This document shows positions 1-21,686 of a stretch of 64,000 nucleotides of DNA, piece by piece. Position 1 is the stretch's first letter. Each line of letters starts with the position of its first letter. The notes below the pieces were generated by a model. That model was not told the DNA's origin and searched no databases. It was given only the letters and a program-made list of their open reading frames with translations. The DNA comes from an uncultured Spirochaetota bacterium (GTDB taxonomy: Bacteria > Spirochaetota > Brevinematia > Brevinematales > JAOACQ01), in assembly GCA_963783575.1 (NCBI GenBank), contig CAWAOD010000009.1:384001-448000 (forward strand). The letters run 5' to 3'. A program made the position numbers and the translations under genes.

Positions 1-36
1 CTTGTTTTATAAATATTAGTATAATAGGAGGTTAAA

Positions 37-531
37 ATGAATCCTAATGTTAATTTGACATTATTTTCTAAGGATAGTTATCGCTCGACCCGACAAGGGA
101 AAATGGTGCTTAATTTTAGTGCGCTCCAAATATTTCCCTTATTGTGCCCAGTAGAAGAGTATAAATGGTTCCCAGGCTGGGAATGTATAATGGTATATTC
201 CAAAACAGGGATTGCAGAGAAAGATGCCGTCTTTTTAACCAAAGAAAAGGACGGTTCTAATATTGTCTGGACAGTTATCACATATGATCCACCCAATTTA
301 ATTGAATTTAGTATCGTAAACGGTCTGAATTCCGTCGAGAGATTCAGTATTATTTTGACAGAGATATCTCATAAAAGTACTGAACTTGAATGGAAAATCA
401 TGAATACATCTTATTCAAAAAATAGTATTGAACAAAACAAAAATCAAAATAATGAATCTTTTAATATTTTTTTAGAAGATAGAAAAAAGGAAATGGACTA
501 CTATCTACGGACAGGGAAAATAATTCAATAA
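37..531 (+). CDS. SRPBCC/START-like fold hypothetical protein (cassette gene)
   Basis: AGGAGG RBS; motif FPLLCPVEEYKWFPGW...WTVITYDPP; followed by attC at 552. Confidence 0.6.
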   Translation: MNPNVNLTLFSKDSYRSTRQGKMVLNFSALQIFPLLCPVEEYKWFPGWECIMVYSKTGIAEKDAVFLTKEKDGSNIVWTVITYDPPNLIEFSIVNGLNSVERFSIILTEISHKSTELEWKIMNTSYSKNSIEQNKNQNNESFNIFLEDRKKEMDYYLRTGKIIQ

Positions 532-551
532 TTATATTAATAAGGCACTGC

Positions 552-712
552 GCACAACAGCAAGTCAGCGGTTGCGCTCGAGTACTCGCTCCACCCAAAT
601 CGCCGGGCTGGTTGAAAGCAATTAAATATGTTAATTTTTATAAATGCTTTTTGATATAATATTTACAGCTTAATTAAATACCGGCGACTTCGCCGACTTG
701 CACCCGTTGTAC
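552..712 (+). other. attC-like recombination site 1 (161 bp)
   Basis: R'' GCACAAC 552-558 and R' GTTGTAC 706-712. Arms GCAAGTCAGCG / CGCCGACTTGC; inner stem ATCGCCGG / CCGGCGAC; AT-rich central loop. Confidence 0.8.
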
Positions 713-822
713 GAAAATTTCCGGGCCGAAGCTGATGATATTACTTTTCCGGCGTCCTTGCCGGAAAAATGATTTATTATTTAAAATGTATTAGAATTTA
801 TATCGATTAGTAGAGGTTTTAA

Positions 823-2160
823 ATGGCATTATTATCAGAAATTGAATCTGCACTAATGCTTGGAATTACAGTTGAATTATTAAATTCATATACAAAATAT
901 TGTCCAAAATCTGGCGAAAATGTTAAATTAAAATATAAAATAGTAAAAGGTATAAAACATTTTGAAAAAGATGATATTCTATTTTATCATAAATATTTAA
1001 ACAGTCCGTGGCCTATGCCAAAAAAAGGAGAAAGACCATATATTCCTAAAGCAATCCAAGATTTTATAAAGTTTGAATCACATTATTCCTGTTCAATTTG
1101 CGGTCATATGGATAATGGTGAAATAGCACATATTGAAGCAGTTTCAACAACACTAAATAATAGTCCAGATAATCTTATTTATTTATGTCCAAATCATCAT
1201 ACAAAATATGATTATGGTTACAAACCTAATAGTAATGTTACATTAGAAGAAATTCGTGCTTCAAAACTTTTAAAAAGAAATGCTTTACAAAGAGTGATGA
1301 AATATGAGTCTAATACAGTTAAATTATTAAAAGTTACATTATTAAACATAAAATCAATCAGTGAAAAACTAGCCTTTGAAAGTGATAAAACAATGCTAGA
1401 GATTTATAATGTTGAATTACAAAACATTGTGAAGAATTTACCAGAATATATAGATAAAGCAAATGATGACGCAAAAAAAGATATAAGTTTAGTAAATGAA
1501 AAAGAACTATTATCTAAAAATGCACCAAATTTAATAAAATATTCAAATATAATAATAAAAGATTCTTCTTTGTTCAAAACATCCGTTGACTCAATAATCA
1601 AGATTTCTAACGAAATATTTATTGATTTAGATGAATATCCCTGTCCTCATTGTGGAGGAAGCGGACTAACAGGATTACTCGGTGATATATGTGTTTATTG
1701 TAAAGGTTCTTGTGTAGTCTCAAAGCAAATGGTTAATAGTTATGACTCTAATAAAATTGATGAAGTTGAATGTCCTCATTGTGGAGGAAGCGGACTAACA
1801 GGATTACTCGGTAATATATGTATTTATTGTAAAGGTTCTCGTAGAGTATCTCATAAAAAGTTTGATCAGTATGATCCAGATAAAATCGATGAAGTTGATT
1901 GCCCTCGTTGTGGGGGAAGCGGACTAACAGGATTACTCGGTGATATATGTACTTATTGTAAAGGTTCTCGTAGAGTATCTCATAAAAAGTTTGATGAGTA
2001 TGATCCCGATGAAACCAATGAAGTTGAATGTCCTCATTGTAGGGGAAGTGGTCTATCAGGATTAGTCGGTAATGTATGTAAATTATGTAAAGGTTCATGT
2101 GTTGTAACTAAGATAGTATATAAAGAATATATCAAGAAATATGGAACTATTGGCGATTAA
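823..2160 (+). CDS. HNH endonuclease fused to four DnaJ-like CxxCxGxG zinc-finger repeats (cassette gene)
   Basis: HNH motif CSICG...EIAHI...NSPDNLIYLCPNHH; C-terminal 4 x CP(H/R)C(G/R)GSGL(T/S)GL(L/V)G(D/N)(I/V)CxxCKGS. Confidence 0.8.
   Translation: MALLSEIESALMLGITVELLNSYTKYCPKSGENVKLKYKIVKGIKHFEKDDILFYHKYLNSPWPMPKKGERPYIPKAIQDFIKFESHYSCSICGHMDNGEIAHIEAVSTTLNNSPDNLIYLCPNHHTKYDYGYKPNSNVTLEEIRASKLLKRNALQRVMKYESNTVKLLKVTLLNIKSISEKLAFESDKTMLEIYNVELQNIVKNLPEYIDKANDDAKKDISLVNEKELLSKNAPNLIKYSNIIIKDSSLFKTSVDSIIKISNEIFIDLDEYPCPHCGGSGLTGLLGDICVYCKGSCVVSKQMVNSYDSNKIDEVECPHCGGSGLTGLLGNICIYCKGSRRVSHKKFDQYDPDKIDEVDCPRCGGSGLTGLLGDICTYCKGSRRVSHKKFDEYDPDETNEVECPHCRGSGLSGLVGNVCKLCKGSCVVTKIVYKEYIKKYGTIGD
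1630..2106 (+). repeat. Intragenic tandem repeat, 4 x 129 bp (43 aa)
   Basis: TG(T/C)CCTC(A/G)TTGT...AAAGGTTC units start at 1642, 1771, 1900 and 2029. Confidence 0.9.
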
Positions 2161-2224
2161 AGCCTCCGCCGTCCTGGGCTCCGGCTTTTTGCTTAAACAT
2201 TCGGCCCGGAAAACATCGTACAAC

Positions 2225-3978
2225 GGCCTTGTAGAAAAAGTTAATTTCAGGTAATAATCCTCCATTCCCAAACAGTTTGTTTTTTTTGATCTGTCTGGAA
2301 TTACTTTATTTATATAAAACCGGGCTGAATTTACCGGCAAAGCTGCTTTTATTCCATCACTATGCCATTATATCCCTCCATAGACCTGAATTTTCCCGAT
2401 ATTGTGCACAGTATTATATAATACCCATTGAATATTCACTTTTCCCTTTCCCCTCAGCGTAAATCGATCCATACCTTTACATGCCCTTATATTCCCGAAT
2501 ACAGGCTCAACTATAGCCATTCTTTTCGCATAAAGCTTTCTGCCTTCAGGTGTATCTATGAACTTTCTCATTTCGTCCGAGTAATGTCTGTTATCCGCAT
2601 TTAACGGCCTTTTTGGCTATATAGTAGCTCTTATGGAACCTCCGTGTTCCCAAGGTTGTTTGATTTTATTTTAATTCTTCAGGAAGTCTTTCTGGAATGG
2701 ACAATTACGGCAGGCCGATAACCGGCACATATACTTCGCATATGTAATATGATTCACCGTATAGTTATATCTGAACCTGAGTTCCTCTCCTTTCTTGCAT
2801 ATATAAACATTATTTTCCGGATCATATTGAAAATCATCAATTGTATACTGCCCTTTCTTCGCAGGCTTATGTCTGTCAGCGGTTTCAAACCTGCAATCGC
2901 GCTTCCTGAAATTCGTATCCGGGATGACCGGTTTCATACCGTTTTGCGAAATATATTTCAGGTTCTTTTCGCTGAAATAATTGGTGTCCGCGGTGATTAT
3001 TTTATCCTTTAAATCTTTTCCCAATTCTACTTTTGCTTTACGGATCATCCCTTTCAGGAATTCCCCCTCAGACCCGCTCCCAAAAGCTTCGGGATATACC
3101 ACAACCTGATACTTCGAATCCACTACAGAAAGTCCGTTGTAGCCCTGGATAACACCATGTGAACTCTTTATTTTCGCACTCTCGTTGTCAGTGACATTGG
3201 ACTGCTTTTCACCATGCCGTGCCTTGTTTTTGGGTTTTTCACTTTCCAGAAACTTTTCTATCTTTTCAGCTTTCTTTAAAATCTTCTCGATCCGTGCCAG
3301 ATCTTTTTCCTTATCCTTCTCAGGAAAACCGCCGTCCTGATCACGCTTTTCATGTTCATCAAGCATTTCCTTAACCAGGTTTTCCAGCTTCTCTTTTTTC
3401 TTCTTCAAATCCTTAAATGTTCCGCTCCATTCCTTTGATGCATTTGACGATAGTTTGCACCCGTCCAGCGCGAACATATCCCCGCCTATGAGATTCAGTT
3501 CGTCACAAACCATCAATATATTCAGGAATACGGTATTTATCTCATTTTTCATCGAAGAAACAAAATCGGCGATTGAAGTAAAGTGCGGTATTGAATTGGC
3601 GGAAATGGCTTTGGCTATAATATTCGTTTTACACAAATATTCGATTTCACGTGATGTAAAAATACCGCGGGAATAGCTGTAGAGTATTATCTTCAGCATA
3701 ACCCGCGGATTATAGGCCGGGGCACCGGTAGCATCGTTCTTATACTTATTCTCAAAGATTTTAAGATCAATTCTGCTGTCAACAAGAAAACTGAGTGTAT
3801 ATTCAAATGTTCCCGGTATAATCTGCTCATCGAATGAGACAGGTATGAGTTCCATTTGATCGTAATTAACTTTCTTATGTCTTGCCATAATTGATTTCCC
3901 CTCTTGATTTTATTTACAATATATTTTAAAGTATAACCGTTATTTTGTACATGAATGACGGACTTTTTCTACAGGCTC
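2225..3978 (-). mobile_element. IS1182-family insertion sequence inserted in attC site 2
   Basis: Terminal IRs GGCCTTGTAGAAAAAGT / ACTTTTTCTACAGGCTC; AAC target duplication at 2222-2224 and 3979-3981; encloses the transposase. Confidence 0.9.
2368..3888 (-). pseudogene. IS1182-family transposase interrupted by in-frame stops (ORFs 2671-3888 and 2368-2571, same frame)
   Basis: GAPAYNPRVMLKIILYSY, ALDGCKLSSNAS, ITADTNYFS and C-terminal RMAIVEPVFGNIR motifs; stops at 2671-2673 and ~2617. Confidence 0.85.
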
Positions 3979-3981
3979 AAC

Positions 3982-4200
3982 AACAGCTTAGCGTTCCGTT
4001 CCTCGGCGTTGCGACGCCTGCGGTACTCAGGGCTGCGCCCACATTTGCCTTTGACACAGTTTTTGCGTTATAATATTTGAAGGAAAGTTTTATGAGAAAT
4101 AATAAAATTTTACACTTTAAGGAAGCATTTACACAAAAAGGCAAAAACTGCGCCAATCGCTGACACGAACGTCAAACGTCGCCAAGCTATACCGTTATGT
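3982..4200 (+). other. attC-like site 2, main part (R'' GTACAAC at 2218-2224 lies left of the IS; reconstructed length ~226 bp)
   Basis: Arms AGCTTAGCG / CGCCAAGCT; inner stem CAGTTTTTGC 4057-4066 / GCAAAAACTG 4141-4150; R' GTTATGT 4194-4200. Confidence 0.75.
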
Positions 4201-4301
4201 GCAATACTCGCGTTCGATTTAATAAATATTTATAGGGCGATTTAATTTTGCTTCTAAATTTTTTTTGATATAAAATAATACTTATAAATTTCAACTTTTT
4301 T

Positions 4302-4331
4302 TTGACTTTATTCTACTTTCTCATATAGAAT
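4302..4331 (+). promoter_or_regulatory. Putative sigma70 promoter inside the SRPBCC-EVE cassette
   Basis: TTGACT-N18-TAGAAT; AT-rich context lowers specificity. Confidence 0.35.
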
Positions 4332-4399
4332 ATTTGACAGATTAAAATTAAAATATAATTATAAAAATAAGTTAATTGTAAAGTAAGGAGGATATTATT

Positions 4400-4819
4400 A
4401 TGATAAGTAAATCATTTTCAACAACAACTAAGAAGGTTTCAAAAGAGCAACTTTGGAAGCTTATGTCCCACATCAATGATTGGAAAAAGTGGGATAACAC
4501 AGTTGAATATTCTGAACTTCAAGGAGACTTTAAAACTGGATCAACATTTATTTTAAAACCTAAAGAAGGACCAAAAGTAAAAATAAAATTAATTGAAGTA
4601 AAACCAAATAATTATTTTAAAGACTGTACTATATTTCCTTTGGCTAAAATGTTTGGAGAACATTGGTATGAGGAAACGTCTGATGGCGTAAAAATTACTG
4701 TAACGATGACTATAAAAGGTATTCTGTCCTTTTTATGGTATAAAATAGTTATGAAGGAATTAGTTGAACATCTTCCGGAAGATGTAAAAAATCAAATTCA
4801 AGCTGCATATAAGTTATAA
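4400..4819 (+). CDS. SRPBCC family (polyketide cyclase/dehydrase-like) protein
   Basis: AAGGAGG RBS; motif WKLMSHINDWKKWD...LQGDFKTGS...KPKEGP. Confidence 0.8.
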   Translation: MISKSFSTTTKKVSKEQLWKLMSHINDWKKWDNTVEYSELQGDFKTGSTFILKPKEGPKVKIKLIEVKPNNYFKDCTIFPLAKMFGEHWYEETSDGVKITVTMTIKGILSFLWYKIVMKELVEHLPEDVKNQIQAAYKL

Positions 4820-4873
4820 TTTATTTGCACTATAATTAGAGTAATCTAGAAGATTTATAAAAGAGGTATTAAT

Positions 4874-5305
4874 ATGAAATATTGGATTAATACAGTTTCA
4901 AAAGATCATGTTATGATTGGTAAAAAAAATGGAATAGTTCAAGCCAATCATGGAAAATTATCACCATTGAAACGATTAAAAGTTGGAGATCAAATAATTT
5001 ATTATTCGCCGAAAACCTCATTCGAAAATGGTGAACCTTTAAAAGCATTTACAGCAATTGCAGAAATAATCGATGAAAAAATATATCAAATAGAATTAAG
5101 TGATGACTTTAAACCATATAGAATAAATGCTAAATATTTGGATTGCAATGAAGTTAAAATTGAACCTCTGATAGAAAGTTTAAATTTTATTAAGAATAAA
5201 AAATCTTGGGGTTATATGTTTAGATTTGGATTATTTGAAATAACAAAACATGATTTTGATTTGATTTATTCGATGATGAAAAAACAACGCGAGTACAGCA
5301 CATAA
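4874..5305 (+). CDS. EVE domain-containing protein
   Basis: MKYWINTVSKDHV...HGK...LKVGD.IIYYSP...WGYMFRFGLFEI; the stop codon TAA lies within R'' ACATAAC. Confidence 0.9.
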   Translation: MKYWINTVSKDHVMIGKKNGIVQANHGKLSPLKRLKVGDQIIYYSPKTSFENGEPLKAFTAIAEIIDEKIYQIELSDDFKPYRINAKYLDCNEVKIEPLIESLNFIKNKKSWGYMFRFGLFEITKHDFDLIYSMMKKQREYST

Positions 5306-5604
5306 CGGCCTTGTAGAAAAAGTTAATTTCAGGTAATAATCCTCCCTTTCCAAACAGCATGTTTTTTTTGATCTGTCCGGAATCACTTTTTTATATAAAA
5401 CCGGGCTGAATTTACCGGCAAAACTGCTTTTATTCCATCACTATGCCATTATATACCACCATATGGAAATGTCAAGAGTTTTTCCCATATCTGCGCTCGG
5501 GTAATTTCCCACCCCTTCCACAAGAGTATTTCCCATATGCTTCACAAGAGTTTTCCCCATACCTTCCACGTGAGTATTTCCCATAGTGAGGAGGCAAAGA
5601 ATGG

Positions 5605-6354
5605 TTACTCAACCTCCTTATTCAAATTTTGTATTCTGTAAGATTCTCCGCTCAAGTTATAAATATTTGAATGATGTAAAAGCCTATCCAGAAGAGCGGT
5701 TGTCATAATCGGGTCTCCCATCATTTCAGCCCAATCCTGAAATCCCTTATTCGATGTTATCACAATTGATGTCTTTTCATACAATTCACTTACAAGACTA
5801 AAGAATAGATTTGCCTCCTTCTTTTCGATAGGTGTGTAACCTATCTCATCAATGATTAATAAGTGTGACTTCATCATCCGGTTCAGCCTGAAAGCAGAGC
5901 TTCTCTGGATGTCCGCCGTTTTCAGAAACTTAATGAGAGTAGTCATCCTTTCAAAGCAGACAATATATCCCTTTTCAACTGCCCGGATTCCGATACTAAT
6001 TGCCAGATGCGTTTTCCCCAGCCCCGGAGACCCAAAGAACAACAGGTTATGATGATTATCAATCCAGCAGAAATCCAATAGCTGTGAAACATCCATTTTA
6101 GATATTCCATTCACTTTTTCAAAATTAAAACCTTCCACATCTTTGCGGACCGGGAAGTGTGCTCCTGCCATATTCCGCTGAAAACGTTTTTCCACTCTAT
6201 AATTCAATTCCAGAGAAAGCAGCCTCTGCAGAAAACTCAGATAAGACTCTTTTGCCTTTTCAGCCTCACCAATTTCCTCATCAATCCGTTTTATCATACC
6301 CTTCAACCCGAGAGTTGTAAGCGCAGTTATGATTTGTTCTCTTATCTTCAACAT
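5605..6354 (-). CDS. istB: IS21 helper ATPase IstB
   Basis: Walker A GSPGLGKT, Walker B LLIIDEIGY, ITSN and ALLDRLLHH motifs. Confidence 0.95.
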   Translation of the reverse strand: MLKIREQIITALTTLGLKGMIKRIDEEIGEAEKAKESYLSFLQRLLSLELNYRVEKRFQRNMAGAHFPVRKDVEGFNFEKVNGISKMDVSQLLDFCWIDNHHNLLFFGSPGLGKTHLAISIGIRAVEKGYIVCFERMTTLIKFLKTADIQRSSAFRLNRMMKSHLLIIDEIGYTPIEKKEANLFFSLVSELYEKTSIVITSNKGFQDWAEMMGDPIMTTALLDRLLHHSNIYNLSGESYRIQNLNKEVE

Positions 6355-7901
6355 TGCCGGCCCCCGATGGAGTCACAGAAACTCTGGTATTTCCCGATGT
6401 CTGATTTAGCTACTTCAAGATAGTGTTCAGGATTCACTGAAGGCCTGACAATCTTTTCAACATTCAAGGGTATTTCTGCCTTTTCTGTTATAAAACAGTT
6501 CAGGTAATTATCCCACAAATCCTTCATGGAATAACTATCACTCTCCAGGCAGTTTGAGATCGCTTGTGTAAGCTTCCCGGTATCAATTATCTTGTCCCTG
6601 AAGTATTTTCTTCCGGAAAGACATTGGTCCCTTACATAACGATTGAACTTCCTGAAATTACATTCAAGAAAATCCTTCCAGCCGGGAATATCAAAGTACC
6701 CGCTTACTTCTTCTTTCAATAACTGCACAGTCTTTCCCATTTCCCGGATCATTGACCTGTTGGTTACAATCTGCCCCGGAATCACTGAAAGCCGGTATTC
6801 GGCGATTTGCTCTCCCGTTATCCTGTCAAAGACAAAAAGCCGACTGCCCGTCTTGTAGATGTCCACCGAACCGTTCCTGTATTTTTCGGGAATATCATAC
6901 TGGCTTGCATCAACTGCGATCCGGCATTTATCGCTTACACTGCGCTCTTCCCTTGCTCCTATCCTGTCTTTACGGAATATCGAATTCCTGACAGATTGGA
7001 GATATGGTCTTTCCGTTTCAATCTCTATCAGTGGTATTTTCATTGTAGCCTGGGATATTCTCCCGTTGGCTTTTCTTTCCAGCCATTTCATCAGGCTTTC
7101 TTCCGCTTCCATTAAACTGTTGAACTCCCGGACTGAGAAGAAACCGTGCTTGATGAATTTGACTACGTTTTCAATCTTTCCCTTACTTTCCGGGTCAGCA
7201 GGTCGGCACACATACATTTTAAGACCCATTTCCCCGATGAAATACTGAAAGTCTTTCGTGTAGATGATATCGCCTGAGTTCTCACTCGCAACCATCGTGC
7301 AGTCCTGATCGATGACAAGTTCATGCGGTATCCCGCCCATATATGCGAAACAGTCCAACAGATGATTGATAAGGTCTTCTGTCCGGAATGGCCTCTCCTG
7401 GAGGGCCGCATACTTAAAACGACTGGCGGATAACACCGCGGCAAATATGTAATACCTTCTGCCATATCTGTCGGTATATTGACCGAAATCAAGCTGGAGC
7501 TGCTTTCCATATGGCATGTCAGGCACTTTTGTGTAATACCGTCGCTTTTCATTCAAGGTAAGCTGCCCGCTTTCAATCAGGTAATGTACGAAATTCCTCA
7601 TCGTATTTTCATTCGCCGGTAGTTTGCCTTTTACCTCCAATAAATAGTCATACAAAGCAGACATATTCAGCCGGATGTAATCATTCTTTTCATATACTTT
7701 CAATATGTCTGTTTTTATTCCTTCGAATTCTTTTTCACGGAAAGAGAATTCCATCAGGCTTTTCTGGTATTCGGAATCGTTCATAGCCCAATATTTTCGG
7801 ACTGTCTTAATATCTATTGACAGTTCCCGGGATACACCATTTTTACTTTTCCCCAAAAGTTTCAGTTTTTTTATGTCCTGATACATAATATTTTTCACCA
7901 T
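6348..7901 (-). CDS. istA: IS21 transposase IstA
   Basis: N-terminal HTH; QLDFG, VIDQD and ESKGKIE DDE motifs; overlaps istB. Confidence 0.95.
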   Translation of the reverse strand: MVKNIMYQDIKKLKLLGKSKNGVSRELSIDIKTVRKYWAMNDSEYQKSLMEFSFREKEFEGIKTDILKVYEKNDYIRLNMSALYDYLLEVKGKLPANENTMRNFVHYLIESGQLTLNEKRRYYTKVPDMPYGKQLQLDFGQYTDRYGRRYYIFAAVLSASRFKYAALQERPFRTEDLINHLLDCFAYMGGIPHELVIDQDCTMVASENSGDIIYTKDFQYFIGEMGLKMYVCRPADPESKGKIENVVKFIKHGFFSVREFNSLMEAEESLMKWLERKANGRISQATMKIPLIEIETERPYLQSVRNSIFRKDRIGAREERSVSDKCRIAVDASQYDIPEKYRNGSVDIYKTGSRLFVFDRITGEQIAEYRLSVIPGQIVTNRSMIREMGKTVQLLKEEVSGYFDIPGWKDFLECNFRKFNRYVRDQCLSGRKYFRDKIIDTGKLTQAISNCLESDSYSMKDLWDNYLNCFITEKAEIPLNVEKIVRPSVNPEHYLEVAKSDIGKYQSFCDSIGGRQC

Positions 7902-8171
7902 TCCTGCCTTCCTTTAATGAATTTTCATTAAAGGTAATCTTCAAGCCTCTCTATGGGAAATCTGTTTGTGACAGGTATGGGAATTTCATTTATTGCTACC
8001 CTGGTAAATTAGTTTATCATTTCCACCATAGACCTGAATTTTTCCTGTAAAGAACAAAGCCTGCTTATGTGCGCCCCGCAACATTAACGCCATTTCCGAT
8101 TGAGATGATGACAATTTGTTCGTTAGGAATATGGGCCAATTAGACGCTTACTGATTGTCAGTATAAAGATT

Positions 8172-9614
8172 TTATTGCTCGTAATTATTTTCTTCAGTTT
8201 TGAATTTGCTAACCAGTTTATCTAATAATTCAAGATTATCACTATTTTTTTGATTTGATTGTGATAAGATTTCGATTGAATTTAGTATCTGAATAAATCC
8301 TGTATTTATTTCTTCAAATTTGTTTTTAGTATCACTTGAAATCAAACTAATATTTGACATTGATAAAGTAATATTATCACTTTTTGAATCAACATCATGG
8401 CTTTGATCTTTTAATTTTTCAAAACTTGCCATTTGTTTTGATAATGATAGAATTATTTCTTTACTATGTGATGTTAAATTATTCATTGAAGTTTTTATAT
8501 CAATCATGCTATCTGATATATCCGAAACAGTGATTGAGATTTTTTGAAATACTTCATTAATTTCAGTTGTTGATTTTTCAGAATCATGTATATTATCAAG
8601 TATATTTTTTAAGGAAGTATGTACAGATTTTGAATTCAATGATGTACTTTCAGCGAGTTTTCTTATTTCGGTTGCAATAATTAAAAATCCTTTACCTTGT
8701 TCTCCGGCATGTGATGCTTGAATCGCAGCATTCATTGCCAGCAAATTAGTCATTTCCGAAATATCGTTAATGATATCGATAAAATTGAGAATATTCCTTG
8801 TTGAGGCAACAACCTTCTTCATTATTTCATTATTATTATTAATTTTCACGGCGCTATCTTTTGCTATAACAACTAAATCATCAACGATTTTAAGTTTTTC
8901 TATTAATGTATTCTCAATAGTTTTTATTAAAGAAATCATAACTTCTATTACTGAAGAAGATTCGGTTATTTCAACTGCCTGATTAGTAATTTTGTCAACA
9001 GAATCATTTATTGTAATACGCATATCCTCTGAAAGAGTATTACATTTTTGTATTTCAGTATCAAGTGTATTCATCATTGTAAATATATTGGAAATGTTAT
9101 TTTGAATTTCTTCAATTGATAGTGAGACTTCTCCAAATGAAGCTGTTAACTCAATATTAGTTAATACAGAATTTTCTTTTGTTTTTTTAATTTCTTTAAT
9201 AGCAGAATTTAGGGTCGATAAATAATTGTTATAGTTTTCTGATATTTCACTAAATTCATTTGAATATTTTTTATTAATTGTATCTATCAGATTGAAATTT
9301 TTAGCATCTCCCAATTTACTTTTTAATTCTTTTAGAGGAGATAAAATAAGTTTATATAAAATCAATAAAAAAATAAGTATAAGTGTTATAAATAAAGGAA
9401 TCTCCCATAATAAATTACTTATACTGCTATTATTAAATAAGGCTCCGAATAATACCATAAGTATTGAATACGGAATAATATAAACAAAAACTTTTATTAT
9501 AACTAATTTTTTCTTAAAAAACATTTTAGTAATATAAAATGCTAAAATTGTAAATATTGTTATAGAAATAATAAATACTGAGTATTTTTCCATATATTCC
9601 ATATAATTAATCAA
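8172..9614 (-). CDS. Methyl-accepting chemotaxis protein
   Basis: N-terminal TM helices; MCP signature [34 protein letters not shown]. Confidence 0.9.
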
Positions 9615-9668
9615 AAATATTACTTTTTATAAGATTCACAGATAATATTTTGATATTTTTTGGCATTA

Positions 9669-10232
9669 TTATTTTCCAATCCAGGTAATAACTAACTCAC
9701 AATATCCTTTACCTTCTTCAATCAACACAGTATATTTTGCATCAACTTGTTTTGCTCCCGATATTTCCAGTGCTTTTTTATAAAACCCTATAATAGAAAA
9801 TCCAATAATCCTATGCTGTTTTTCAAAACCGGTATATTTTATTATAGCTCCATTAGGACCTGTCATTTTAACCTCAATTGAAACACCTCTAAAATAACTT
9901 TGATGTATAGCTGACATTTTATTAAGAACGAATTCAGGGGAACCTAATTTAACGAATATTTTATAAATACCTCTTAACTGTTTTTCAATTATTATTTCTG
10001 TTCTAGCTATTAATTCAGATTCATTACCATTTGCAGTTATTTTTATATCAGATTCCAAAAATTTTGAAAAATGATCCAATGAATACCATCCTAATGATAA
10101 TATCATTTTTTGAAATATAGCTCTAGATTCATTGTCCAGGCTTGAAATAATGCTATTAAACACCTGTTCTCCGCTTCTTTTTTTGAGATTTTCAAGTGAA
10201 TCATTAATCACTGAACCTTTAACTTCAACCAT
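9669..10232 (-). CDS. Hypothetical protein, possibly DUF2378/V4R/H-NOX-like ligand-binding fold
   Basis: AGGAGG RBS; VKG...GWY...G-FY..ALE.SGA...C..W pattern. Confidence 0.5.
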   Translation of the reverse strand: MVEVKGSVINDSLENLKKRSGEQVFNSIISSLDNESRAIFQKMILSLGWYSLDHFSKFLESDIKITANGNESELIARTEIIIEKQLRGIYKIFVKLGSPEFVLNKMSAIHQSYFRGVSIEVKMTGPNGAIIKYTGFEKQHRIIGFSIIGFYKKALEISGAKQVDAKYTVLIEEGKGYCELVITWIGK

Positions 10233-10369
10233 ATTATCCTCCTATTGATAATTGATAGGAAAAAATATAATTCTATCTGAATGATAGGGAAATTATAATC
10301 AACGATTGAAAATAAAGCAAAAAAAAAGGAAAAACTGCAAAATATCACAACGTTTAGTAGACTTTAAAG

Positions 10370-10811
10370 GCTGGTGGTATACTTCGGAACAGGAACGCTG
10401 TGAACCTCTGGCGGTCCGAGAAATGAAGAGAGGCCTCATGAGGGCCTTGAAATGAAGACTCCTGCTATGATTTATTGTTTATCCCAGAGAAAGTATGATG
10501 GGACAGAAGATTGGCTGGTTTATCCTGAAGGGTATATCAGCCTCTGTTTGAATGACCGTGGATATATCAATCACAAAGGCAGAAGAATCTTTATTACTAA
10601 TGCCTCTGTGGTTTTAATATTGGTCTGAGGCTGAAAAGTAAACTAATGGCTGAAGTATGGTTTGAGAATAATTTAATGGGAAACCTGGACTTGAAAACTT
10701 TTATTTTTAAATCTATAATGAAAGAGGTTTTTCCCAGACACAAAAGAAAAATACATTAGTGTTACCTATGTCCTGACGTTAAAACGTTACCCATATCTTG
10801 AAGTCGGACCT
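10370..10811 (+). pseudogene. Degraded IS481-like transposase C-terminus and right end
   Basis: Fragments NEERPHEGLEMKTPA and AEVWFENNLMG; terminal TGTTACCTATGTCC / GTTACCCATATC repeats. Confidence 0.6.
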
Positions 10812-10863
10812 AATCAGTGATGGACAGTACCTTACCAACTTATAGTGGAGGACTCATTTAAGG

Positions 10864-11301
10864 ATGAAAAGGGAAATTAACGTATTAGGTGGGAGTGAAG
10901 TTTTAGACAACGGCCCCTTTTATCACGGGACGAAAGCGGATTTGCGGGTTGGCGATTTGTTGACTGCTGGGTTTCGGTCAAATTACAAACCCGAAGTCAT
11001 TATGAATCACATTTATTTTACAGCCTTGGCTAATGGGGCAGGACTTGCCGCAGCCTTGGCCAAAGGTGATGGACGTGAACGTGTATATATAGTTGAACCG
11101 ACGGGTAGCTTTGAAAATGACCCGAATGTTACGGACAAAAAATTTCCTGGTAATCCAACACGCTCATATCGCACTAAAGCGCCTTTGAAAATCGTCGGCG
11201 AATTAACAGATTGGGTGAGACCAACGCCTGAGGAACTTCAAAAATGGCGCGTAAAGTTGGCTGATATCAAAACGGATTCGAAAGCAGAAATTATTAATTA
11301 A
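10864..11301 (+). CDS. arr: NAD(+)-rifampin ADP-ribosyltransferase
   Basis: FYHGTKADL, NHIYFTA and VYIVEPTG.FENDPNVTDKKFPGNPTRSYR signatures. Confidence 0.95.
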   Translation: MKREINVLGGSEVLDNGPFYHGTKADLRVGDLLTAGFRSNYKPEVIMNHIYFTALANGAGLAAALAKGDGRERVYIVEPTGSFENDPNVTDKKFPGNPTRSYRTKAPLKIVGELTDWVRPTPEELQKWRVKLADIKTDSKAEIIN

Positions 11302-11394
11302 AAACATGGAAGAATTATAATGAATTCCTGGCGGCATCCTTGCCGGTAAAATAAGGAACCAGTTGTTCGTTATAAATTAATTGGAGGATTCATA

Positions 11395-12945
11395 ATGTTA
11401 GACTTATGGAGAAGATTCTGGATTATTCTTATTATTTTTTTCTGCTTCACGGTACCGGTTATAGCTAATGATACCAATGATTATTACCCCAGTACTACAT
11501 GGCGGACTTCAACTCCGGAAGCGCAGGGTATTGATTCGGGACATCTGGTCAGGATGCTGGATTATATACAATCGTATGATATAAATTTCCACAGTATTAT
11601 AATTATCCGTCATGGATATATTGTCATGGAAGCTTACGCAGAACCTTTCGGAAAGAACGTTATCCATACCCTTAATTCATGCACTAAAAGTGTCGTATCA
11701 TCTTTGATCGGTATTGCTTTAAGAGAAGGCTATATCAAAAGCATTGATCAAAGGGTCGTTGATATATTTTCCAATCAGAATATAAAAAATATGGATGATA
11801 ATAAACGGCAGATAACAATTGAACATCTGCTGACCATGAGTTCGGGAATCAACCAACCGGATGTAGATGGGCACCCCCCGGAAAATTATTTTAAAGCCTC
11901 CAAATGGAACCAATATTATCTTGATCTCCCAATGGCAACACAACCAGGTAAATTATTTGCTTATGATTCCTCAGGGGTAAACCTTCTTATGGCTATTTTA
12001 CAAAAAACCAGCGGTATGAAAAATTCGGATTTTGCCGATAAATTTCTTTTCAAGCCGATCGGTATTACCAATTATTATTGGCGGACTGATCCGCAGGGAG
12101 ATTATCTCGGAGGCTTTGGATTGGCTTTAACTCCAATGGATATGGCCAGGTTCGGTTATCTATATTTAAAAAAAGGAAATTGGAATGGAAAACAGATAAT
12201 ACCCGCCGATTGGGTTGAAATATCCATGTCCAACAATATTGATACATCAATGTGCCCTTTTGCGATTTCTACAAATAAAGGATACGGTTTCCTGTGGTGG
12301 GGGCTTCAGTTTGGTGGTTTTACAGCGATGGGCGCTGGTGGACAATTTATAATGGTCATGCCTGAAAATGATATGGTAGTTGTAGTTACCTCCGGTTTTC
12401 CCCCTCAAGATTTTCAAACACCATTAATTTATTTAGCTGAACAATTCACAAACCAATCCTATGTTTCCAGCAGCAGTCTCCCCGAAAATCCAGAAAAACA
12501 GGCGGAACTTGCGGCCGCCATCCGGAATTTTGGGAATCCAACAAATGATACAGATTTAGTTATTCCGGAAATGGCGAAAATAATTTCAGGGAAAAAATAT
12601 ATTCTTGATTCAAATCCGGGTAACTTAAAATCTATTATGGTGAATTTCAATGGTTCCAACGAATGTATTTTCGATGCAGAATATCCGGATAACCATTTTA
12701 AAATAATAATCGGATTGGACGGGAAATACCGTGAAAATAGATATGAAAATTTTTTATATTATAAGGAGTTCTGGCGTGGTAAATGGACAGGTGAAAATAC
12801 TTTTGTAGCAGAATATTACAGACCTTGTGTTGACGGTAGTAAAATTCAATTTACTTTTCAATTCGATCAGGATAAGCTCAAAATGGCACAAGAATCAACG
12901 GTTGGAGAATGGTGGCGGCATTTTACAGGAAAAATGGAACAATAA
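11395..12945 (+). CDS. Secreted serine hydrolase, beta-lactamase class C/AmpC-like superfamily
   Basis: Signal peptide; SxxK (SCTK), LLTMSSG, PGKLFAYDS and DMARFGYLYL motifs. Confidence 0.85.
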   Translation: MLDLWRRFWIILIIFFCFTVPVIANDTNDYYPSTTWRTSTPEAQGIDSGHLVRMLDYIQSYDINFHSIIIIRHGYIVMEAYAEPFGKNVIHTLNSCTKSVVSSLIGIALREGYIKSIDQRVVDIFSNQNIKNMDDNKRQITIEHLLTMSSGINQPDVDGHPPENYFKASKWNQYYLDLPMATQPGKLFAYDSSGVNLLMAILQKTSGMKNSDFADKFLFKPIGITNYYWRTDPQGDYLGGFGLALTPMDMARFGYLYLKKGNWNGKQIIPADWVEISMSNNIDTSMCPFAISTNKGYGFLWWGLQFGGFTAMGAGGQFIMVMPENDMVVVVTSGFPPQDFQTPLIYLAEQFTNQSYVSSSSLPENPEKQAELAAAIRNFGNPTNDTDLVIPEMAKIISGKKYILDSNPGNLKSIMVNFNGSNECIFDAEYPDNHFKIIIGLDGKYRENRYENFLYYKEFWRGKWTGENTFVAEYYRPCVDGSKIQFTFQFDQDKLKMAQESTVGEWWRHFTGKMEQ

Positions 12946-12996
12946 ATTTAATTATCTTTTAAATAACTGAAATATTATTTACATACATCGCCGTCC

Positions 12997-13200
12997 GTGG
13001 CTTTAATATTGGTCTGAGGCTGAAAAGTAAACTAATGGCTGAAGTATGGTCTGAGAATAATTTAATGGGAAACCTGGACTTGAAAATTTTTATTTTTAAA
13101 TCTATAATAAAAGAGTTGTTTTCCAGACACAAAAGAAAAATACATTAGTATTACTTATGTCCTGACGTTAAAACCTTACCCATGTCTTGAAGTCGGACCT
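12997..13200 (+). repeat. Second copy of the IS481-like right end (direct repeat of 10608-10811)
   Basis: ~200 bp near-identical, from GTGG(T/C)TTTAATATTGGTCTGAGG to CTTGAAGTCGGACC. Confidence 0.9.
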
Positions 13201-13226
13201 GGGCCAGCTTTTTTGTGGAGAAAAAA

Positions 13227-14570
13227 ATGTATTTAAAAAGAACAAATAATTGATGAAATTAAGCGTATTGCATTTCAGTTAGGGGTTTCATCATTAAAAT
13301 GAAGAGATTTTCAAATGAAATCAATAATATCTTTGAGTACAGTTTGTTATCATTTTAATACTTGGAATTAAGCAGTTAATGAAGCTGGATTAACACCTAT
13401 AGATAGTACTAAAATATTCAATAATATAGAACGCGGAATTGATGAAGTTGATTTACTAACTGAATTAATCAGACTTAATAAAGAAAATAATATTATTCCA
13501 ACAGGAAGTCTTATTAATTCTAAGGGTAAATATAGTACCAGACCTTATGAACATCGTTGGAAAAATATTAATAATGCATTTAAAAAAGAAGGAGGTAATT
13601 TGTGTTTAATAAGAGTTTATTAATTTTATTAGTTGTTTTGTCAATAATCATTTATAATAAACAAATATTAAATGGAAAAAATAATGAAAAGACTACAACT
13701 GGTTTAACAAACAAATTAAAAATATACGATAATTTGGATTATGGCTTTGATTTTAAATATCCGGCAAATTTTAAACTCCAAAACTTTAATGATCTTGGCC
13801 CAGATGAATTTATGCAAACCCATGACAAATTACAGTTGGAAAAATTAGTAGAAATTAATATGAATGGTTGGTTTTGTACCTACATTTGTCCTATTGATAA
13901 ATTTCTGGATGTGAATAATGTTAAGACTGTTAAAGATTTAGATCCGAAACTGCAATCGAAATCAATAAATAAGATTAAATATTATTTAAGCCCGGATGAA
14001 GAGGGTCCAGCAGCCATGGGCGGCCATAGAAGTACAGTATTTACTTATATTACTATTCAAAACAATCATTGCTTTTTATTTGTACAAACGTTGGCATATG
14101 ATATATATGATTTTGCAACAGAAGGAGGCGATATGCCCCGCAACCTGCATCCAAAAGAAGAGAAGGCATTACAAGACTGGATAACCAAACAAAAAAATGA
14201 ATATGAAAAATTCCTGGAGTCAGTTAAATTTTATAATACTAATCCAGGACCTAATGGCTGACAAATAAAAAGCAAACCTTCTATTAAATAACTTCTAGTA
14301 AGTAAAATAATTGTCAGATAACTTGCTTAGTTTTGTAAAATTAGCGAGGTTATAATTTTTGCCTGATGCATTTCTGTTAAAGATATTAAAATCATTTCAT
14401 CATTAATTATATCAGTTAAAATTGAATTTGAATTCAATAGTAAAAATTTTGTAAATCACGGTCATAATCCGGATGAATGTGATATTATAGTATATTGGGT
14501 TCATGATTGGCAAGAATGTACTTTAGTAATTTTAGAATTAAGGAATGTTATAAAATATTTGAAAAGTTAA
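13227..14570 (+). pseudogene. Disrupted homing-endonuclease-associated-repeat / nuclease gene (fragments 13227-13590 and ~14340-14570)
   Basis: Fragments EIKRIA...STVCYHFNTWN*AVNEAGL and HGHNPDECDIIVYWVHDWQEC contain stops and frameshifts; the gene ends just before attC half-site 14589. Confidence 0.55.
13602..14261 (+). CDS. Secreted hypothetical protein (PsbP-like YGF.FKYP motif)
   Basis: AAGGAGG RBS with GTG start; signal-like N-terminus; YDNLDYGFDFKYP motif; C-terminal FLESVKF. Confidence 0.6.
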   Translation: MFNKSLLILLVVLSIIIYNKQILNGKNNEKTTTGLTNKLKIYDNLDYGFDFKYPANFKLQNFNDLGPDEFMQTHDKLQLEKLVEINMNGWFCTYICPIDKFLDVNNVKTVKDLDPKLQSKSINKIKYYLSPDEEGPAAMGGHRSTVFTYITIQNNHCFLFVQTLAYDIYDFATEGGDMPRNLHPKEEKALQDWITKQKNEYEKFLESVKFYNTNPGPNG

Positions 14571-14588
14571 ACACGCGCGGAAAACTTC

Positions 14589-14620
14589 GTACAAACACGG
14601 CATACCTGTTCCGCTCCGTC
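14589..14620 (+). other. attC-like left half-site, truncated by IS110 remnant
   Basis: GGAAAACTTCGTACAAAC resembles the cassette-2 end GGAAAACATCGTACAAC; followed by ACGGCATACCTGTTCCGCTCC, similar to the attC2 arm GTTCCGTTCC. Confidence 0.55.
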
Positions 14621-14649
14621 TATGATAAAAGTCTAGTTTTAGTAAAATT

Positions 14650-15362
14650 TTAAACTACTTTTTTCAAAAAGTTATTATAATCTTTCAATTTATATAAGTG
14701 AAATTCTTTATCCATATAATAAAAATATTCATTTTTCTTCAGCATATGATATATTGCCACTAAAACTTTTCTTACAATAGCAATCCTTACCTTGACAGAG
14801 CTTTTACCATTTCTTTTCTTTTCATAGAACAATCTGAATTTATCATATGTTTTAAAATGGACTATGGATCCAATTAATAGATTGACAGATAATATTCTTC
14901 CCTGTTTATTTATTCTTCCAATTCTGGTTGTTTGGTTTGAAGAATCTACTCTTGGCGCTGACCTTAAATATGAGCAAAAGCATTTTGCATCAGCAAACCG
15001 ATTGATATCCGCAACATCAGACATAATTCCGATTGCACAAAATGGACTGATACCTTTGATGCTGGTTAATATTTCTATCTTATGTCGGAAATACCTTTGA
15101 TCAAGATTTCAGATTTTACTTCCTTTAGTGAATTTGAAACCGTCTCTAAATTCTGATAAAGTAATGTGATTTCCATTTTAACACTCAAATGTAATTCCAA
15201 ATTTAATATAGATTCTTTGATCTCTTTTCTTTCCAGGCTTTCTTTTGGATATTTATATCCATTCTGCTTCAATAGGGAATGCATACGGTTTTTGAGCATT
15301 ACAACCTGCTTTCTAAAAAATGATAAGTGGTAAATAACTGGCGTATTTCCCTGACTTCAGGC
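14650..15362 (-). pseudogene. IS110/IS1111-family transposase, frameshifted and 5'-truncated
   Basis: LKNRMHSLL, SIKGISPFCA and DINRFADAK.F.SY..SAPRVDSSNQT..GRINKQG motifs, spread over several frames. Confidence 0.8.
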
Positions 15363-15483
15363 TTCGTCAACAACTTTTGTATGACATTCTTTTATCTTTT
15401 GTGTGTCCTTCAGATCGTCTGCAAACTACCAATCCTCCTGAAAAAGGATCAAACACTTAATGGTTATAAGGCACTGTAGAAAT

Positions 15484-16518
15484 CTATGGTGTAACTATTA
15501 TAGATACATAATTGCTCCATCCTGTTGCCGCTTTATATGCGGACAAACTACCCGAGGGAACATGGATTTGCAGACTAGAATTACAATTTATAAATGCCTG
15601 TGATCCTGTAGGCAAGTCTGGAGGTGTAGTTCCCTGAACTGTAATGCTGGTCAGACTGGAGCAGTTAAAAAACGATCCAGCAATACTGGAACCAATACTG
15701 TTAACGCTAGAGGGGATGATGACACTGTTTAAAGTAATACCACTAAACGTATCGCCTCCTATGTTAGTAACACCAGATGGGATAGTGTAACTTCCAGCTA
15801 TACCGCCTGGGAAAGATAACAAGATAGTTCCGGTTTTATCAAACAAAACACCGGCTATTGATTCGTAATACAGGTTTGCTGAGTCGACGGAAATATTAGT
15901 AAGGACTGGGGAAAAAACGTAGGAACAACCATTGAATGCGCCTAGCCCAATACTGGTAACACTAGAAGGAATAGTTATATTGCTCAAACATGTTCCTCCT
16001 AATGCCCAAAGATTTATGTTGGTAACGCCAGATGGGATACTGTAGTTTCCAGCTTTACCTCTGGGGAAAGATAACAAGATAGTTCCGGTTTTATCGAACA
16101 GAACACCATCTATTGATTCATAATACTGATTTGCAGAATCAACGAAAAAATTGGCAAGGATGCCGCAATCCTTAAAATACCACCGGGCTATATTAGTGAT
16201 ACTAGAGGGGATAGTGACGGTAGTTATAGCACAGTAACTACCATCAAATGCATTATCACCAATTTCCGTTACAGGAACTCCATCAATATTTGATAATATC
16301 GTAATATTTCCGCTTGCGTTAGTACCTGTTAAAACAATCCATGTAGTTCCTGTATTGGTATAGACAACATTATCACTATTGGTATAACTTTCTCTCCCTC
16401 CACTCGAAGACGAATTTCCTCCACTGCTACTGCCGGAAGAAGACAGTGAACTACACGAAACAAGCATACTTATAATAATAAAAGTAAATAGGATTGGGGC
16501 TGACAATTTTCTGATCAT
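15484..16518 (-). CDS. BspA-type leucine-rich repeat lipoprotein
   Basis: Lipobox LVSC; Ser/Gly linker; repeats TIPSSVTSIG and YESIDGVLFDKTGT. Confidence 0.9.
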   Translation of the reverse strand: MIRKLSAPILFTFIIISMLVSCSSLSSSGSSSGGNSSSSGGRESYTNSDNVVYTNTGTTWIVLTGTNASGNITILSNIDGVPVTEIGDNAFDGSYCAITTVTIPSSITNIARWYFKDCGILANFFVDSANQYYESIDGVLFDKTGTILLSFPRGKAGNYSIPSGVTNINLWALGGTCLSNITIPSSVTSIGLGAFNGCSYVFSPVLTNISVDSANLYYESIAGVLFDKTGTILLSFPGGIAGSYTIPSGVTNIGGDTFSGITLNSVIIPSSVNSIGSSIAGSFFNCSSLTSITVQGTTPPDLPTGSQAFINCNSSLQIHVPSGSLSAYKAATGWSNYVSIIVTP

Positions 16519-16769
16519 AAAAATATACCTCCAAATATATTAAGCTTATTTTAGAAATAACTGTATAAAAAGTCAATACGGAGTTATCCGTATTATTGAC
16601 TTTTTATAAATATTTAACTTAACTTTATATATAATACTTTTGAAAATAATAAAATCTGAAATAAATAAAACAAATATTTGCACGATAGCTAGCAGAGAAA
16701 CAGATCCTCATTGGGGAAAATTCAAACTCTCTACCCTATGCCCATTCCTCTGCTTCTGCTCTGTCCGTA

Positions 16770-16885
16770 TTTTAATTCAAAAAGATTTGGAAACAATTCA
16801 TAATATTAAAGCTTTTAAAGAAAGATGCAACAACTGCGACAATCGCTGACGGGTAAGGCAAACGTCACCAAACATGCCGTTATAT
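16770..16885 (+). other. attC-like right half-site
   Basis: GCAACAACTGCGACAATCGCTGAC...CAAACGTCACCAA...CCGTTATAT is homologous to the attC2 right arm 4141-4200; R' GTTATAT at 16879-16885. Confidence 0.7.
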
Positions 16886-17126
16886 GCAAGCAATGTCGGA
16901 TCTTTGCGTTAAGAAGTGATTTCGGCATCCTTACCGGAAAATTGATTTTATTGAATTATCTAATTTATTATAGAATTTATAAAATTTAAATACAATAATT
17001 ACATATGTGACACAGTGTTATAATTATATGTATTGTAATAAGTTATTAAATATTAAAAAATATTATGATTTGTTTTCTCCATTTTTTTTTGCTATAATAT
17101 TATCCAAATTTATTGAGGAGTTTAAT

Positions 17127-18017
17127 ATGTTTGAAGAGAAAGCATTAAATGTTGGTCCTTCAAAGCTCAATATAGTTTATCAGCGTTTTGGTAGTCCTGC
17201 GTCGCCACCTATCCTGCTCATTATGGGCGGTGGTGCTCAGATGATTGCTTGGCCGGAAGGTTTCTGTGAAGAACTTGCTAGCCAGGGCCTGCAGCCGATT
17301 CGTTTTGATAATCGAGATACCGGATTGACCACTCACATTACCGACGCGCCGATCCCAGACTTGAAAGCGGCCAGAGCCGGTAATTTTTCATCGGTGTCTT
17401 ACACACTTTCCGATATGGCAGCTGATACCGTCGGACTTATGAGCGCACTAGGGTTTGAAAGTGCGCATCTTCTTGGAGCTTCGATGGGAGGTATGATTGC
17501 TCAGACCGTCGCTATTGAATACCCGGAAAAGGTGCGCTCACTAACATCAATGATGTCTACCACGGGAAACCCTTCTGTAGGACAGCCTGACAACAAAACA
17601 ATTGCCAACTTAGGTGCCCCTCCGCGCGATGATCGCCAGGGTGCCATTGATTGGCAAGTACGATCTCTTAAGGCTATCGGTTCGCCGAAATACCCGCTTG
17701 ATGAGGTTATTACAGCAGAAAATGCAGGCCGGGCCTGGGATCGTGATCACGATCCGTTAGGCATGTTACGCCAATCAGTAGCTGTTCTTAAATCTGGTGA
17801 CCGTACAAAGCAACTCCGAAAACTTCATGTGCCCACATTAGTAATCCATGGCGCTGACGACAAGATGATCGATGTCAGCGGCGGTAAAGCGACTGCAGCC
17901 GCCATTCCAGGAGCTGAAATCGTTATATTTGAAGGAATGGGTCATGGTTTCCCTCAACCTCTGTGGAAGGAGTTTGCGAAGCTCATTGTTAACCTTGTTA
18001 ATAGAGCAGAAGTATAA
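17127..18017 (+). CDS. Alpha/beta fold hydrolase (cassette gene)
   Basis: GAGGAG RBS; RFDNRDTG, GASMGG nucleophile elbow, HGADD and GMGH motifs. Confidence 0.9.
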   Translation: MFEEKALNVGPSKLNIVYQRFGSPASPPILLIMGGGAQMIAWPEGFCEELASQGLQPIRFDNRDTGLTTHITDAPIPDLKAARAGNFSSVSYTLSDMAADTVGLMSALGFESAHLLGASMGGMIAQTVAIEYPEKVRSLTSMMSTTGNPSVGQPDNKTIANLGAPPRDDRQGAIDWQVRSLKAIGSPKYPLDEVITAENAGRAWDRDHDPLGMLRQSVAVLKSGDRTKQLRKLHVPTLVIHGADDKMIDVSGGKATAAAIPGAEIVIFEGMGHGFPQPLWKEFAKLIVNLVNRAEV

Positions 18018-18140
18018 TTATAAATCGCCGTCCTGGCTTTACTTTATGCGCCGATTTTCGACCGGGCCAACGTTTAATACGGTATAGCTGTTTTGCCCAG
18101 TCTCAATAGTGTTACGAGCTGTGCTCAGTCCTTTCGTCAG

Positions 18141-21338: not shown

Positions 21339-21515
21339 AACCGCTCAATCCTCCAATTATATAATAAAATCCGATTTATTTTAAAGAATCAAATATAGGC
21401 AGTTCCATTGGATAAAAAGTGTAGTTTAAAGAAGGTTTTTGAACTGACCATATTATAATATGAAACTTGATTATAATAAAATTTTTATAATTCCTGAGTT
21501 ATGATTGAAATTTTG

Positions 21516-21630
21516 CAATTATCTGTAGCTAATTTTCAATTATCTGTAGCTAATTTTCAATTATCTGTAGCTAATTTTCAATTATCTGTAGCTAATTTTC
21601 AATTATCTGTAGCTAATTTTGCAATTATCT
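21516..21630. repeat. Tandem repeat, 5.4 x 21 bp CAATTATCTGTAGCTAATTTT
   Basis: Five exact copies at 21516-21620 plus a partial copy; no spacers. Confidence 0.95.
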
Positions 21631-21686
21631 TGGTCATTATCTAAAATCTATTATTCTTAAATTCAATTTTTTATCCGGATAATGTC

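Follow-up and report, generated by a model that had tools for sequence, protein, structure and literature searches.

The locus studied here raises the question of which kind of system built an array of gene cassettes that has no integrase gene at its head. The window, that is the whole stretch of 64,000 nucleotides (nt) that was analysed, comprises positions 384,001 to 448,000 of contig CAWAOD010000009.1 from assembly GCA_963783575.1 of an uncultured Spirochaetota bacterium. The genome studied is designated G000 and its contigs carry C-numbers, and thus the window is G000:C9:384001-448000; coordinates without a contig refer to the window. The assembly is 89.85% complete with 4.91% contamination. 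In keeping with a spirochaete host, it has four FlaA genes over the Pfam cut-off, versus none in 14 control genomes. The answer that we regard as probable is a satellite array, with the window as its head, in an integron-like system, the recombinase of which lacks the insertion of the integron integrase IntI; such arrays would be landing sites served in trans.

The cassettes were analysed for the footprint of circular integration. It had been proposed in the initial annotation that the start of a cassette (R') is complementary to its end (R''), and two pairings were verified, of GTTGTAC (706) with GTACAAC (2218-2224) and of GTTATGT (4194) with ACATAAC (5300-5306). The comparison was extended to 26 cassettes with ends defined independently of the starts, and positions beyond the invariant triplet were counted. 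The ends were taken from 15 attC-like sites (6 sites with left edges derived from insertion sequences, IS, were excluded) and from 17 IS insertion points, and each was paired to the nearest upstream start; 4 ends without a start and 2 duplicates were removed. The cassette starts agreed with their own ends at 157 of 182 variable positions, compared with 111.7 +/- 5.9 in permutations, none of which (0/20,000) was as high. Heptamers agreed at 31 of 60 positions inside one composite site versus 90 of 104 between the two ends of the same cassette. Agreement so far above permutations is what the insertion of circular cassettes at G|TT should leave behind. An exception is cassette 2, with an open reading frame (ORF) at 37-531, which matches its own end at 4 of 7 positions only. 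The mismatches between cassette ends ran 6 to 1 in the same wobble direction as those in the site stems described below (23 of the 26 cassettes, the three worst-matching excluded). The locus is thus a real chromosomal array of swappable gene cassettes.

The annotated lengths of the two attC-like sites in the window, 161 bp (552-712) and 226 bp (3975-4200), were confirmed, as were the GC-rich arms around an AT-rich loop in both. Folding of the bottom strands, which had been recommended as a check, yielded z values of -4.1 for the 161-bp site and -2.1 for the 226-bp site relative to shuffled sequences, and in the 161-bp site AAC and GTT were paired next to a 3-nt bulge. A first genome-wide hairpin scan produced 376 matches, was too noisy and was superseded by a genome-wide profile of the right arm (47 matches); 32 right ends were picked by hand, and the left arms were located via arm complementarity. 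In G000 21 intact sites (20 distinct) of 153-253 bp passed the arm test. Their stem begins 1 nt past AAC and is about 10 pairs long, and 2-3 extra bases lie beside GTT on the right arm; in 18 of 20 sites the bottom strand has GG there. The outer stems of the 20 distinct sites were of the Watson-Crick type at 165 of 180 positions, and this pairing was realized with at least seven different stem sequences. The stem mismatches of the top strand comprised 10 A.C versus 0 G.T, which equals G.T wobble pairs on the bottom strand, and core pairing was likelier on the bottom strand in 16 of the 20 sites.

In the canonical attC register the central spacer is unpaired and the L'' arm carries extrahelical bases. 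Both features are absent from the G000 sites, which therefore seem to depart from attC in register as well as in length. In the description of PMC5371416 the spacer and the extrahelical bases are named as attC features, and attC lengths of 57-141 bp are given. In an alternative reading, the recombinase could act in an Xer-like manner on double-stranded sites, with the long hairpins being repetitive extragenic palindrome (REP)-like repeats or expression signals beside true short sites. This would suit an enzyme without the helix that is known, according to PMC7790495, to read single-stranded attC, it would account for promoter-like and translation signals in the sites, and 10-nt complementary cassette ends could make a duplex site in the circle. 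However, the arm sequences vary yet pairing is kept, and the mismatches favour the bottom strand one-sidedly, and we consider this the least probable of the alternatives. The translation signals consist of a top-strand ribosome-binding site and an ORF of 20-25 codons that ends 34-40 nt before the site end, and they were present in 14 of the 16 distinct sites of at least 191 bp. None was found on the bottom strand of these 16 long sites and none on the top strand of the four short sites. As 10 of the 14 come from one near-identical family, the putative loop ORFs are a lead only.

An integrase had been predicted to lie left of the window. This was not borne out: the upstream 60 kb consist of housekeeping genes and IS copies, with no tyrosine recombinase near. 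The search of the upstream contig for attI revealed that the array opens with a promoter and an attI-like site, and that no integrase lies between them. The putative promoter block (C9:382103-382132) matches the sigma-70 consensus at 12 of 12 positions and has an extended -10 with a TG motif; it is located about 185 nt before the crossover at C9:382286. The attI-like site (C9:382232-382288) is composed of inverted repeats that end at G|TT, where cassette 1 follows, and 52 of 54 nt are identical to the site beside a recombinase gene on contig C5. The earlier picture of a sedentary array decaying away from its integrase can thus be retained for the chromosomal cassettes, the long sites and the decay away from the head, but the head itself is devoid of an integrase.

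The promoter block is present in 11 copies in G000 (at most 4 mismatches in 32 positions, with a threshold of 7), which are at unrelated loci; the distance from a block to the following G|TT cassette start is 117-414 nt. Behind the 11 blocks, nine sites are clearly attI-like, one is degenerate and one is nearer to an attC arm. The heads are conserved as far as G|TT and variable past it, as expected of attI. None of the 11 heads has an integrase gene, and two of them hold a decayed 3' end of one (weak tblastn matches, E 0.02-0.03). Pairs of heads at different loci share a gene-less module at 87-92% identity; the heads of the window and of C5:114977 show 92% identity over the stretch that extends from promoter to attI, and this stretch contains no gene. 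The attI sequences of the heads fall into several types, and the promoter block is absent ahead of the C5 recombinase gene. Further attI-like heads of a different sequence type, without the promoter block and with cassette clusters behind them, were seen at C12:18566, C13:202547 and C13:208470. Matches of the attI motif in the genomes G006 and G005 (contig C84) were rejected as chance matches inside genes. A 250-bp imperfect palindromic repeat at C9:381790-382040 recurs at about 16 other places, often but not always upstream of promoter heads, and is possibly an element of the REP type or resembling a miniature inverted-repeat transposable element.

Which enzyme could serve these heads? The assembly contains 15 matches to PF00589, and the top scorer to the integron family is the gene at C5:457129-458194. 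It is the sole integron-like recombinase in the assembly and is on another contig than the window array. The gene points to its own array (about 26 kb, with the same site types), and an attI-like site is present within 60 nt, so that an integrase adjacent to attI is found only at the C5 array and not at the window array. With TIGR02249 nothing in the assembly scored over the cut-off of 265; the best match in the search of the assembly reached 100 bits, and the main frame of the C5 gene reached 161.6 bits. The absence of intI from the whole genome had been named as evidence against an integron, and the result is twofold: no gene exceeds the family cut-off, but an insertion-less integron-like recombinase exists. 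The spacing between the catalytic R and H is 92 residues in the short enzymes, 41 fewer than the 133 in 7 of 7 canonical spirochaete IntIs, and it is 94-97 in XerC/D. In comparison with VchIntIA the gap is 24 versus 66 residues, and an intact relative is 42 residues short against 2a3v. The short enzyme thus lacks the additional domain (I2 helix) by which IntI membership is defined. It is not an orthologue of XerC/D either, as G000 has separate XerC/D-like genes. In a tree of 26 proteins the short enzymes formed one clade (84/87, not strongly supported), and they were placed with IntI and a recombinase linked to IS91, separately from XerC/D (100/100). A structure model of P0001 (pLDDT 89), the intact recombinase of the relative G011, had VchIntIA and XerA as its best matches. 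Intact relatives of the C5 enzyme in genomes of the same family have 348-353 amino acids (aa), and a search for related loci returned only IS91-type and XerC-like recombinases.

The 70 N-terminal residues are HARP-like on weak evidence. PF07443 was over the Pfam cut-off in three relatives, which had been chosen for that annotation, its match in the G000 piece has an E of 0.0027, and there was no match in P0001. The top Foldseek match of the N-terminal domain was the HARP domain of SMARCAL1 (E 0.17, TM 0.49), and in the VIA fold comparison HARP had a Z of 3.9 and a root-mean-square deviation of 1.6 over 44 residues at rank 30. Apart from the arrays, tyrosine recombinase genes were observed in five tandem pairs (about 450 plus 350-370 aa) on C5 and C15, e.g., at C5:2631-4987.

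A survey of the phylum revealed the short form in 70 of 301 genomes and canonical IntI in 29 of 301, with both in one genome; these counts include kin that are not independent. Among 28 phylum loci that were parsed, most showed by eye a GTT start and an attI-like repeat behind the gene. This bears on the possibility that an ordinary integron with long attC sites is at hand, that its canonical IntI is absent from the assembly or was lost, and that the short recombinase is a bystander. The AAC/GTT cores, the G|TT crossover and the bias toward the bottom strand agree with canonical integrons, Treponema is described to have canonical integrons that are co-oriented and have sites of up to 132 bp (PMC3607928), and the G000 assembly is incomplete. 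Yet none of the 11 family genomes, and no order genome among those searched, yielded a canonical IntI, the short gene lies directly before attI in G000, in the relative G011 and in most phylum loci read by eye, and the sites have neither the canonical spacer nor the canonical bulge. An ordinary integron is thus very improbable.

The arrays also bear signs of cassette movement. A fixed gene order in related genomes had been named as an argument against an integron, and the order was not fixed, because the same two cassettes have other neighbours at another G000 locus. These are cassettes 2 and 3 of the window, which have one difference in about 2,250 nt compared with C5:472317-474566. The identity runs from the crossover to a point within an IS, and on neither side are the neighbours the same at the two loci. 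The simplest history would be that the block was inserted at the window head and cassette 1 thereafter, but the C5 site that precedes the block has mismatched arms, so that homologous recombination and the reverse direction may apply as well. In G011, which has intact genes, two loci share the recombinase gene and attI, and one of them bears an extra cassette exactly at G|TT before the first cassette of the other; these may be two loci or two strains. In the G011 arrays there are 13 sites, with lengths of 138-223 bp and the register seen in G000, against 3 detector matches in 180 kb of control DNA. The G011 recombinase gene follows fragments of a type I methylase (locus L049 on G011:C1, locus L048 on G011:C7), and ORFs that we take to be relaxase-like and ParA-like are on the same short contig as the recombinase gene. 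The short-recombinase system may ride on a mobile element.

The serious competitor to recombination in trans is that the heads are frozen remnants of full integrons in which the integrase decayed, that nothing was added later, and that the shared block was moved by homologous recombination between site arms and IS copies. The decayed integrase 3' ends in two heads, the several attI types, the heavy IS load with a shared block that ends inside an IS and the frameshifted C5 gene (see below) would all agree with this, and integrase loss as a possible origin of integrase-less clusters was considered by Cury et al. (PMC4889954). However, most heads keep a perfect promoter consensus, a gene-less module is common to pairs of heads at different loci, and cassette 1 with its exact ends is flanked by attI on one side and, on the other, by a block with 99.95% identity to its C5 counterpart. 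The latter position indicates a recent insertion at a gene-less head, unless copying of the block went outward from the window locus. We therefore regard frozen remnants as unlikely, though clearly less so than the two alternatives above.

In the mechanism proposed for a satellite array served in trans, a co-oriented tyrosine recombinase of about 350 aa, which lacks the IntI insertion and has a HARP-like N-terminus, would insert circular cassettes at a double-stranded attI-like G|TT and would read the folded bottom strand of the long cassette sites. The outer stem of these sites is nearly fully paired, and its 2-3 extra bases by the core would stand in for the canonical extrahelical bases. The approximately ten integrase-less promoter-plus-attI heads dispersed on the chromosome probably arose from full integrons by gene deletion and were then copied as a unit. 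They would express cassettes and would have been filled in trans by the single C5 recombinase, which may now be dead. The anatomy, the cassette footprint, the missing insertion, the dispersed heads and the shared cassettes were observed, and from these we infer that an enzyme of the C5 type does the recombination, that its substrate is single-stranded, that the heads are transcribed and that the action is in trans.

Several observations weigh against this proposal. The C5 gene carries two frameshifts, each at a short single-base run; at the assembly rate of 7 per 55.9 kb (5 of 46 conserved genes) two frameshifts by error have a P of about 0.008. Errors cluster, however, and the sole cysS (window 19945-21338) is also frameshifted, so that an assembly error is possible for the C5 gene, but a real pseudogene is likelier. 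A comparison of IS copies as a gauge of errors (1 indel in 66 kb) was judged to be poor, as cysS is frameshifted. The notion that HARP replaces I2 is weakened by a weak HARP trace in 5 of 7 canonical IntIs as well. Of the 16 phylum loci that had 1 kb of flank or more, only 3 were followed by full sites according to the detector, and the pairing of the outer stem showed no preference for the bottom strand (7 higher, 5 equal and 8 lower of 20). None of the 11 family genomes yielded the promoter block or the G000-type attI motif. The shared block is the only near-identical cassette block among 14 array regions, and its right edge inside an IS, together with the mismatched arms of the C5 site, indicates that homologous recombination had a part. 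Lastly, an incomplete assembly with this contamination leaves room for a missing IntI or for mixed strains.

The array itself starts left of the window. Cassette 1 encodes a 467-aa protein with an NADase-type glycan-binding domain, has exact 10-nt complementary ends and is followed by an attC-like site of 224 bp (C9:383760-383983). Cassette 2 has its G|TT start 23 bases left of the window (C9:383977) and a leader at 1-36, and its ORF (37-531) encodes 164 aa without a Pfam match; 495 of 495 nt are identical to a cassette of the C5 array. Beyond the 161-bp site, the ORF of cassette 3 (823-2160) encodes 445 aa with an HNH-like domain fused to four DnaJ-type zinc-finger repeats of 43 residues each; its C5 copy has one different base, which is a premature stop. 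A weak PADLOC match to PDC-M68A (E 3e-6) was obtained for this protein, which is possibly a defence nuclease, and for the window cassettes PADLOC gave weak partial matches only. The end of cassette 3 (2218-2224) is separated from its site by an IS1182-family element (2225-3978, reverse strand), which was inserted at AAC of the cassette end and duplicated AAC. The true AAC of the following 226-bp site is therefore at 3979, the first four bases being derived from the inserted IS; its loop contains promoter-like hexamers (4045-4074) and a 23-codon ORF. Cassette 4 (4194-5306) has two ORFs, one with an SRPBCC/polyketide-cyclase fold (4400-4819) and one with an EVE domain (4874-5305). These cassettes, their sites and the site relics below are all on the forward strand. 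At the end of cassette 4 sits a stub of the same IS1182-type element (5307-8046, reverse strand), which is split by an IS21 (5464-8025), and the expected next site is gone.

The array had been annotated to extend over 1-18100. Instead, intact cassettes reach from 1.7 kb left of the window up to 5306, and insertion sequences, ordinary genes and three broken site halves follow. The latter are a left half (14589-14621), which was severed beside IS110 fragments, a right half (16824-16885, GTT at 16879) ahead of an alpha/beta hydrolase gene, and a possible degenerate cassette end with left arm (18072-18092), seen by eye only and under the profile threshold. The region 8049-18100 contains a reverse-strand chemoreceptor gene, arr, a serine hydrolase gene, IS110 fragments, a reverse-strand leucine-rich repeat lipoprotein gene and the hydrolase gene. 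The arr gene (rifampin ADP-ribosyltransferase, 10864-11301) is over the NCBIfam cut-off and is not bounded by intact cassette sites. A 207-bp direct repeat with promoter-like hexamers (10605-10811 and 12994-13200, 94% identical) flanks arr and the serine hydrolase gene. It was rejected as a cassette site, its fold being unlike that of cassette sites; partial copies are at C5:364074 and C5:367571, and in the distal part of a different array genes are preceded by related pieces. An Rfam search of window positions 1-22000 at E values up to 1 gave no match. At 21491-21641 a tandem array of six 21-bp units is present upstream of a gene pair that presumably encodes transketolase subunits.

The IS1182-type elements of the arrays have a common insertion pattern. 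In 8 of 8 cases the right end was followed by AAC and a site arm, and in 17 of 17 (the window element 2225-3978 and 16 more in G000) the left end followed a cassette-end sequence; the query for the left end contained AAC, and hence only the bases ahead of AAC are informative. Insertion duplicates AAC (3 bp), and the downstream site is formally left whole. A second, very recent IS1182-family element (18141-19830 and about 35 copies), the flanks of which recur as repeat-like sequences, appears to have a different target preference.

A broader proposal is that of a second class of integrons, based on an IntI sister that never had or lost the I2 helix, with long bulge-shifted hairpin sites, and common in spirochaetes. 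One recombinase in G000 would fill about ten gene-less, promoter-bearing attI platforms, which would have spread as non-autonomous modules, the site ORFs would carry translation across the hairpins, and an IS1182 family would target the cassette core. This bundle is a possibility that we put somewhat below even chance. Cassette footprints without the I2 helix would be a natural test of how integrons arose, the more so as PMC7790495 presents the helix as the innovation that enabled recombination of single-stranded attC and names the lack of intermediates as a limit. As the short enzyme is commoner than canonical IntI in the survey, a large cassette pool may be uncounted.

In comparison with known systems, the G000 system would work like an integron by sequence evidence, except for the integrase domain, the adjacency at the window array and the site register. 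A literature search in main texts, mostly open-access, found no description of insertion-less cassette systems, HARP-bearing recombinases, an attC-targeting IS1182 or multiple gene-less attI heads. Sedentary chromosomal integrons are alike in their tandem co-oriented AT-rich cassettes, AAC/GTT cores, G|TT crossover, complementary cassette ends, bottom-strand wobble bias and cargo of toxin-antitoxin-like and lipoprotein genes. They differ in that G000 has a recombinase without the IntI-specific insertion, many attI heads per genome, sites that are longer than the range in PMC5371416, and extra bases that are not in the L box but adjoin the core on the R' side. The Treponema integrons (Wu et al., 2013, PMC3607928) share the spirochaete host, an integrase transcribed toward attI, some long sites and cases of integrase loss; however, the canonical IntIs of spirochaetes have retained the insertion (spacing 133) and constitute a clade of their own, and the sites described there have 63-132 bp with one attI per integron. 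The 'integron-like' tyrosine recombinases (Smyshlyaev et al., 10.1101/542381; NCBIfam NF040815) are also close relatives of IntI without the insertion, but in that description the insertion-less members are tied to IS91 and IS3 elements and not to cassette arrays. A few insertion-less recombinases near attC sites were reported by Cury et al. (PMC4889954) and treated as non-IntI. According to that paper detection tools define IntI by the I2-helix region, on which the intI profile of IntegronFinder was built, and it is this region that the short recombinase lacks.

The closest counterparts of the window array are the attC-site clusters without an integron integrase (CALINs; Cury et al., PMC4889954), which are likewise cassette clusters without a neighbouring integrase. 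They are defined by at least two attC sites with no integrase nearby, and the window array has three intact, though non-canonical, sites. For the cassettes of CALINs a use in trans was proposed by Ghaly et al. (PMC8618304, PMC9668308). However, CALINs are described as cut off from the cassette promoter Pc, whereas the G000 clusters keep their own promoter and attI-like site and could thus receive and express cassettes, not just donate them. Such heads would recast integrase-less arrays as live sites of expression and capture, and not as debris.

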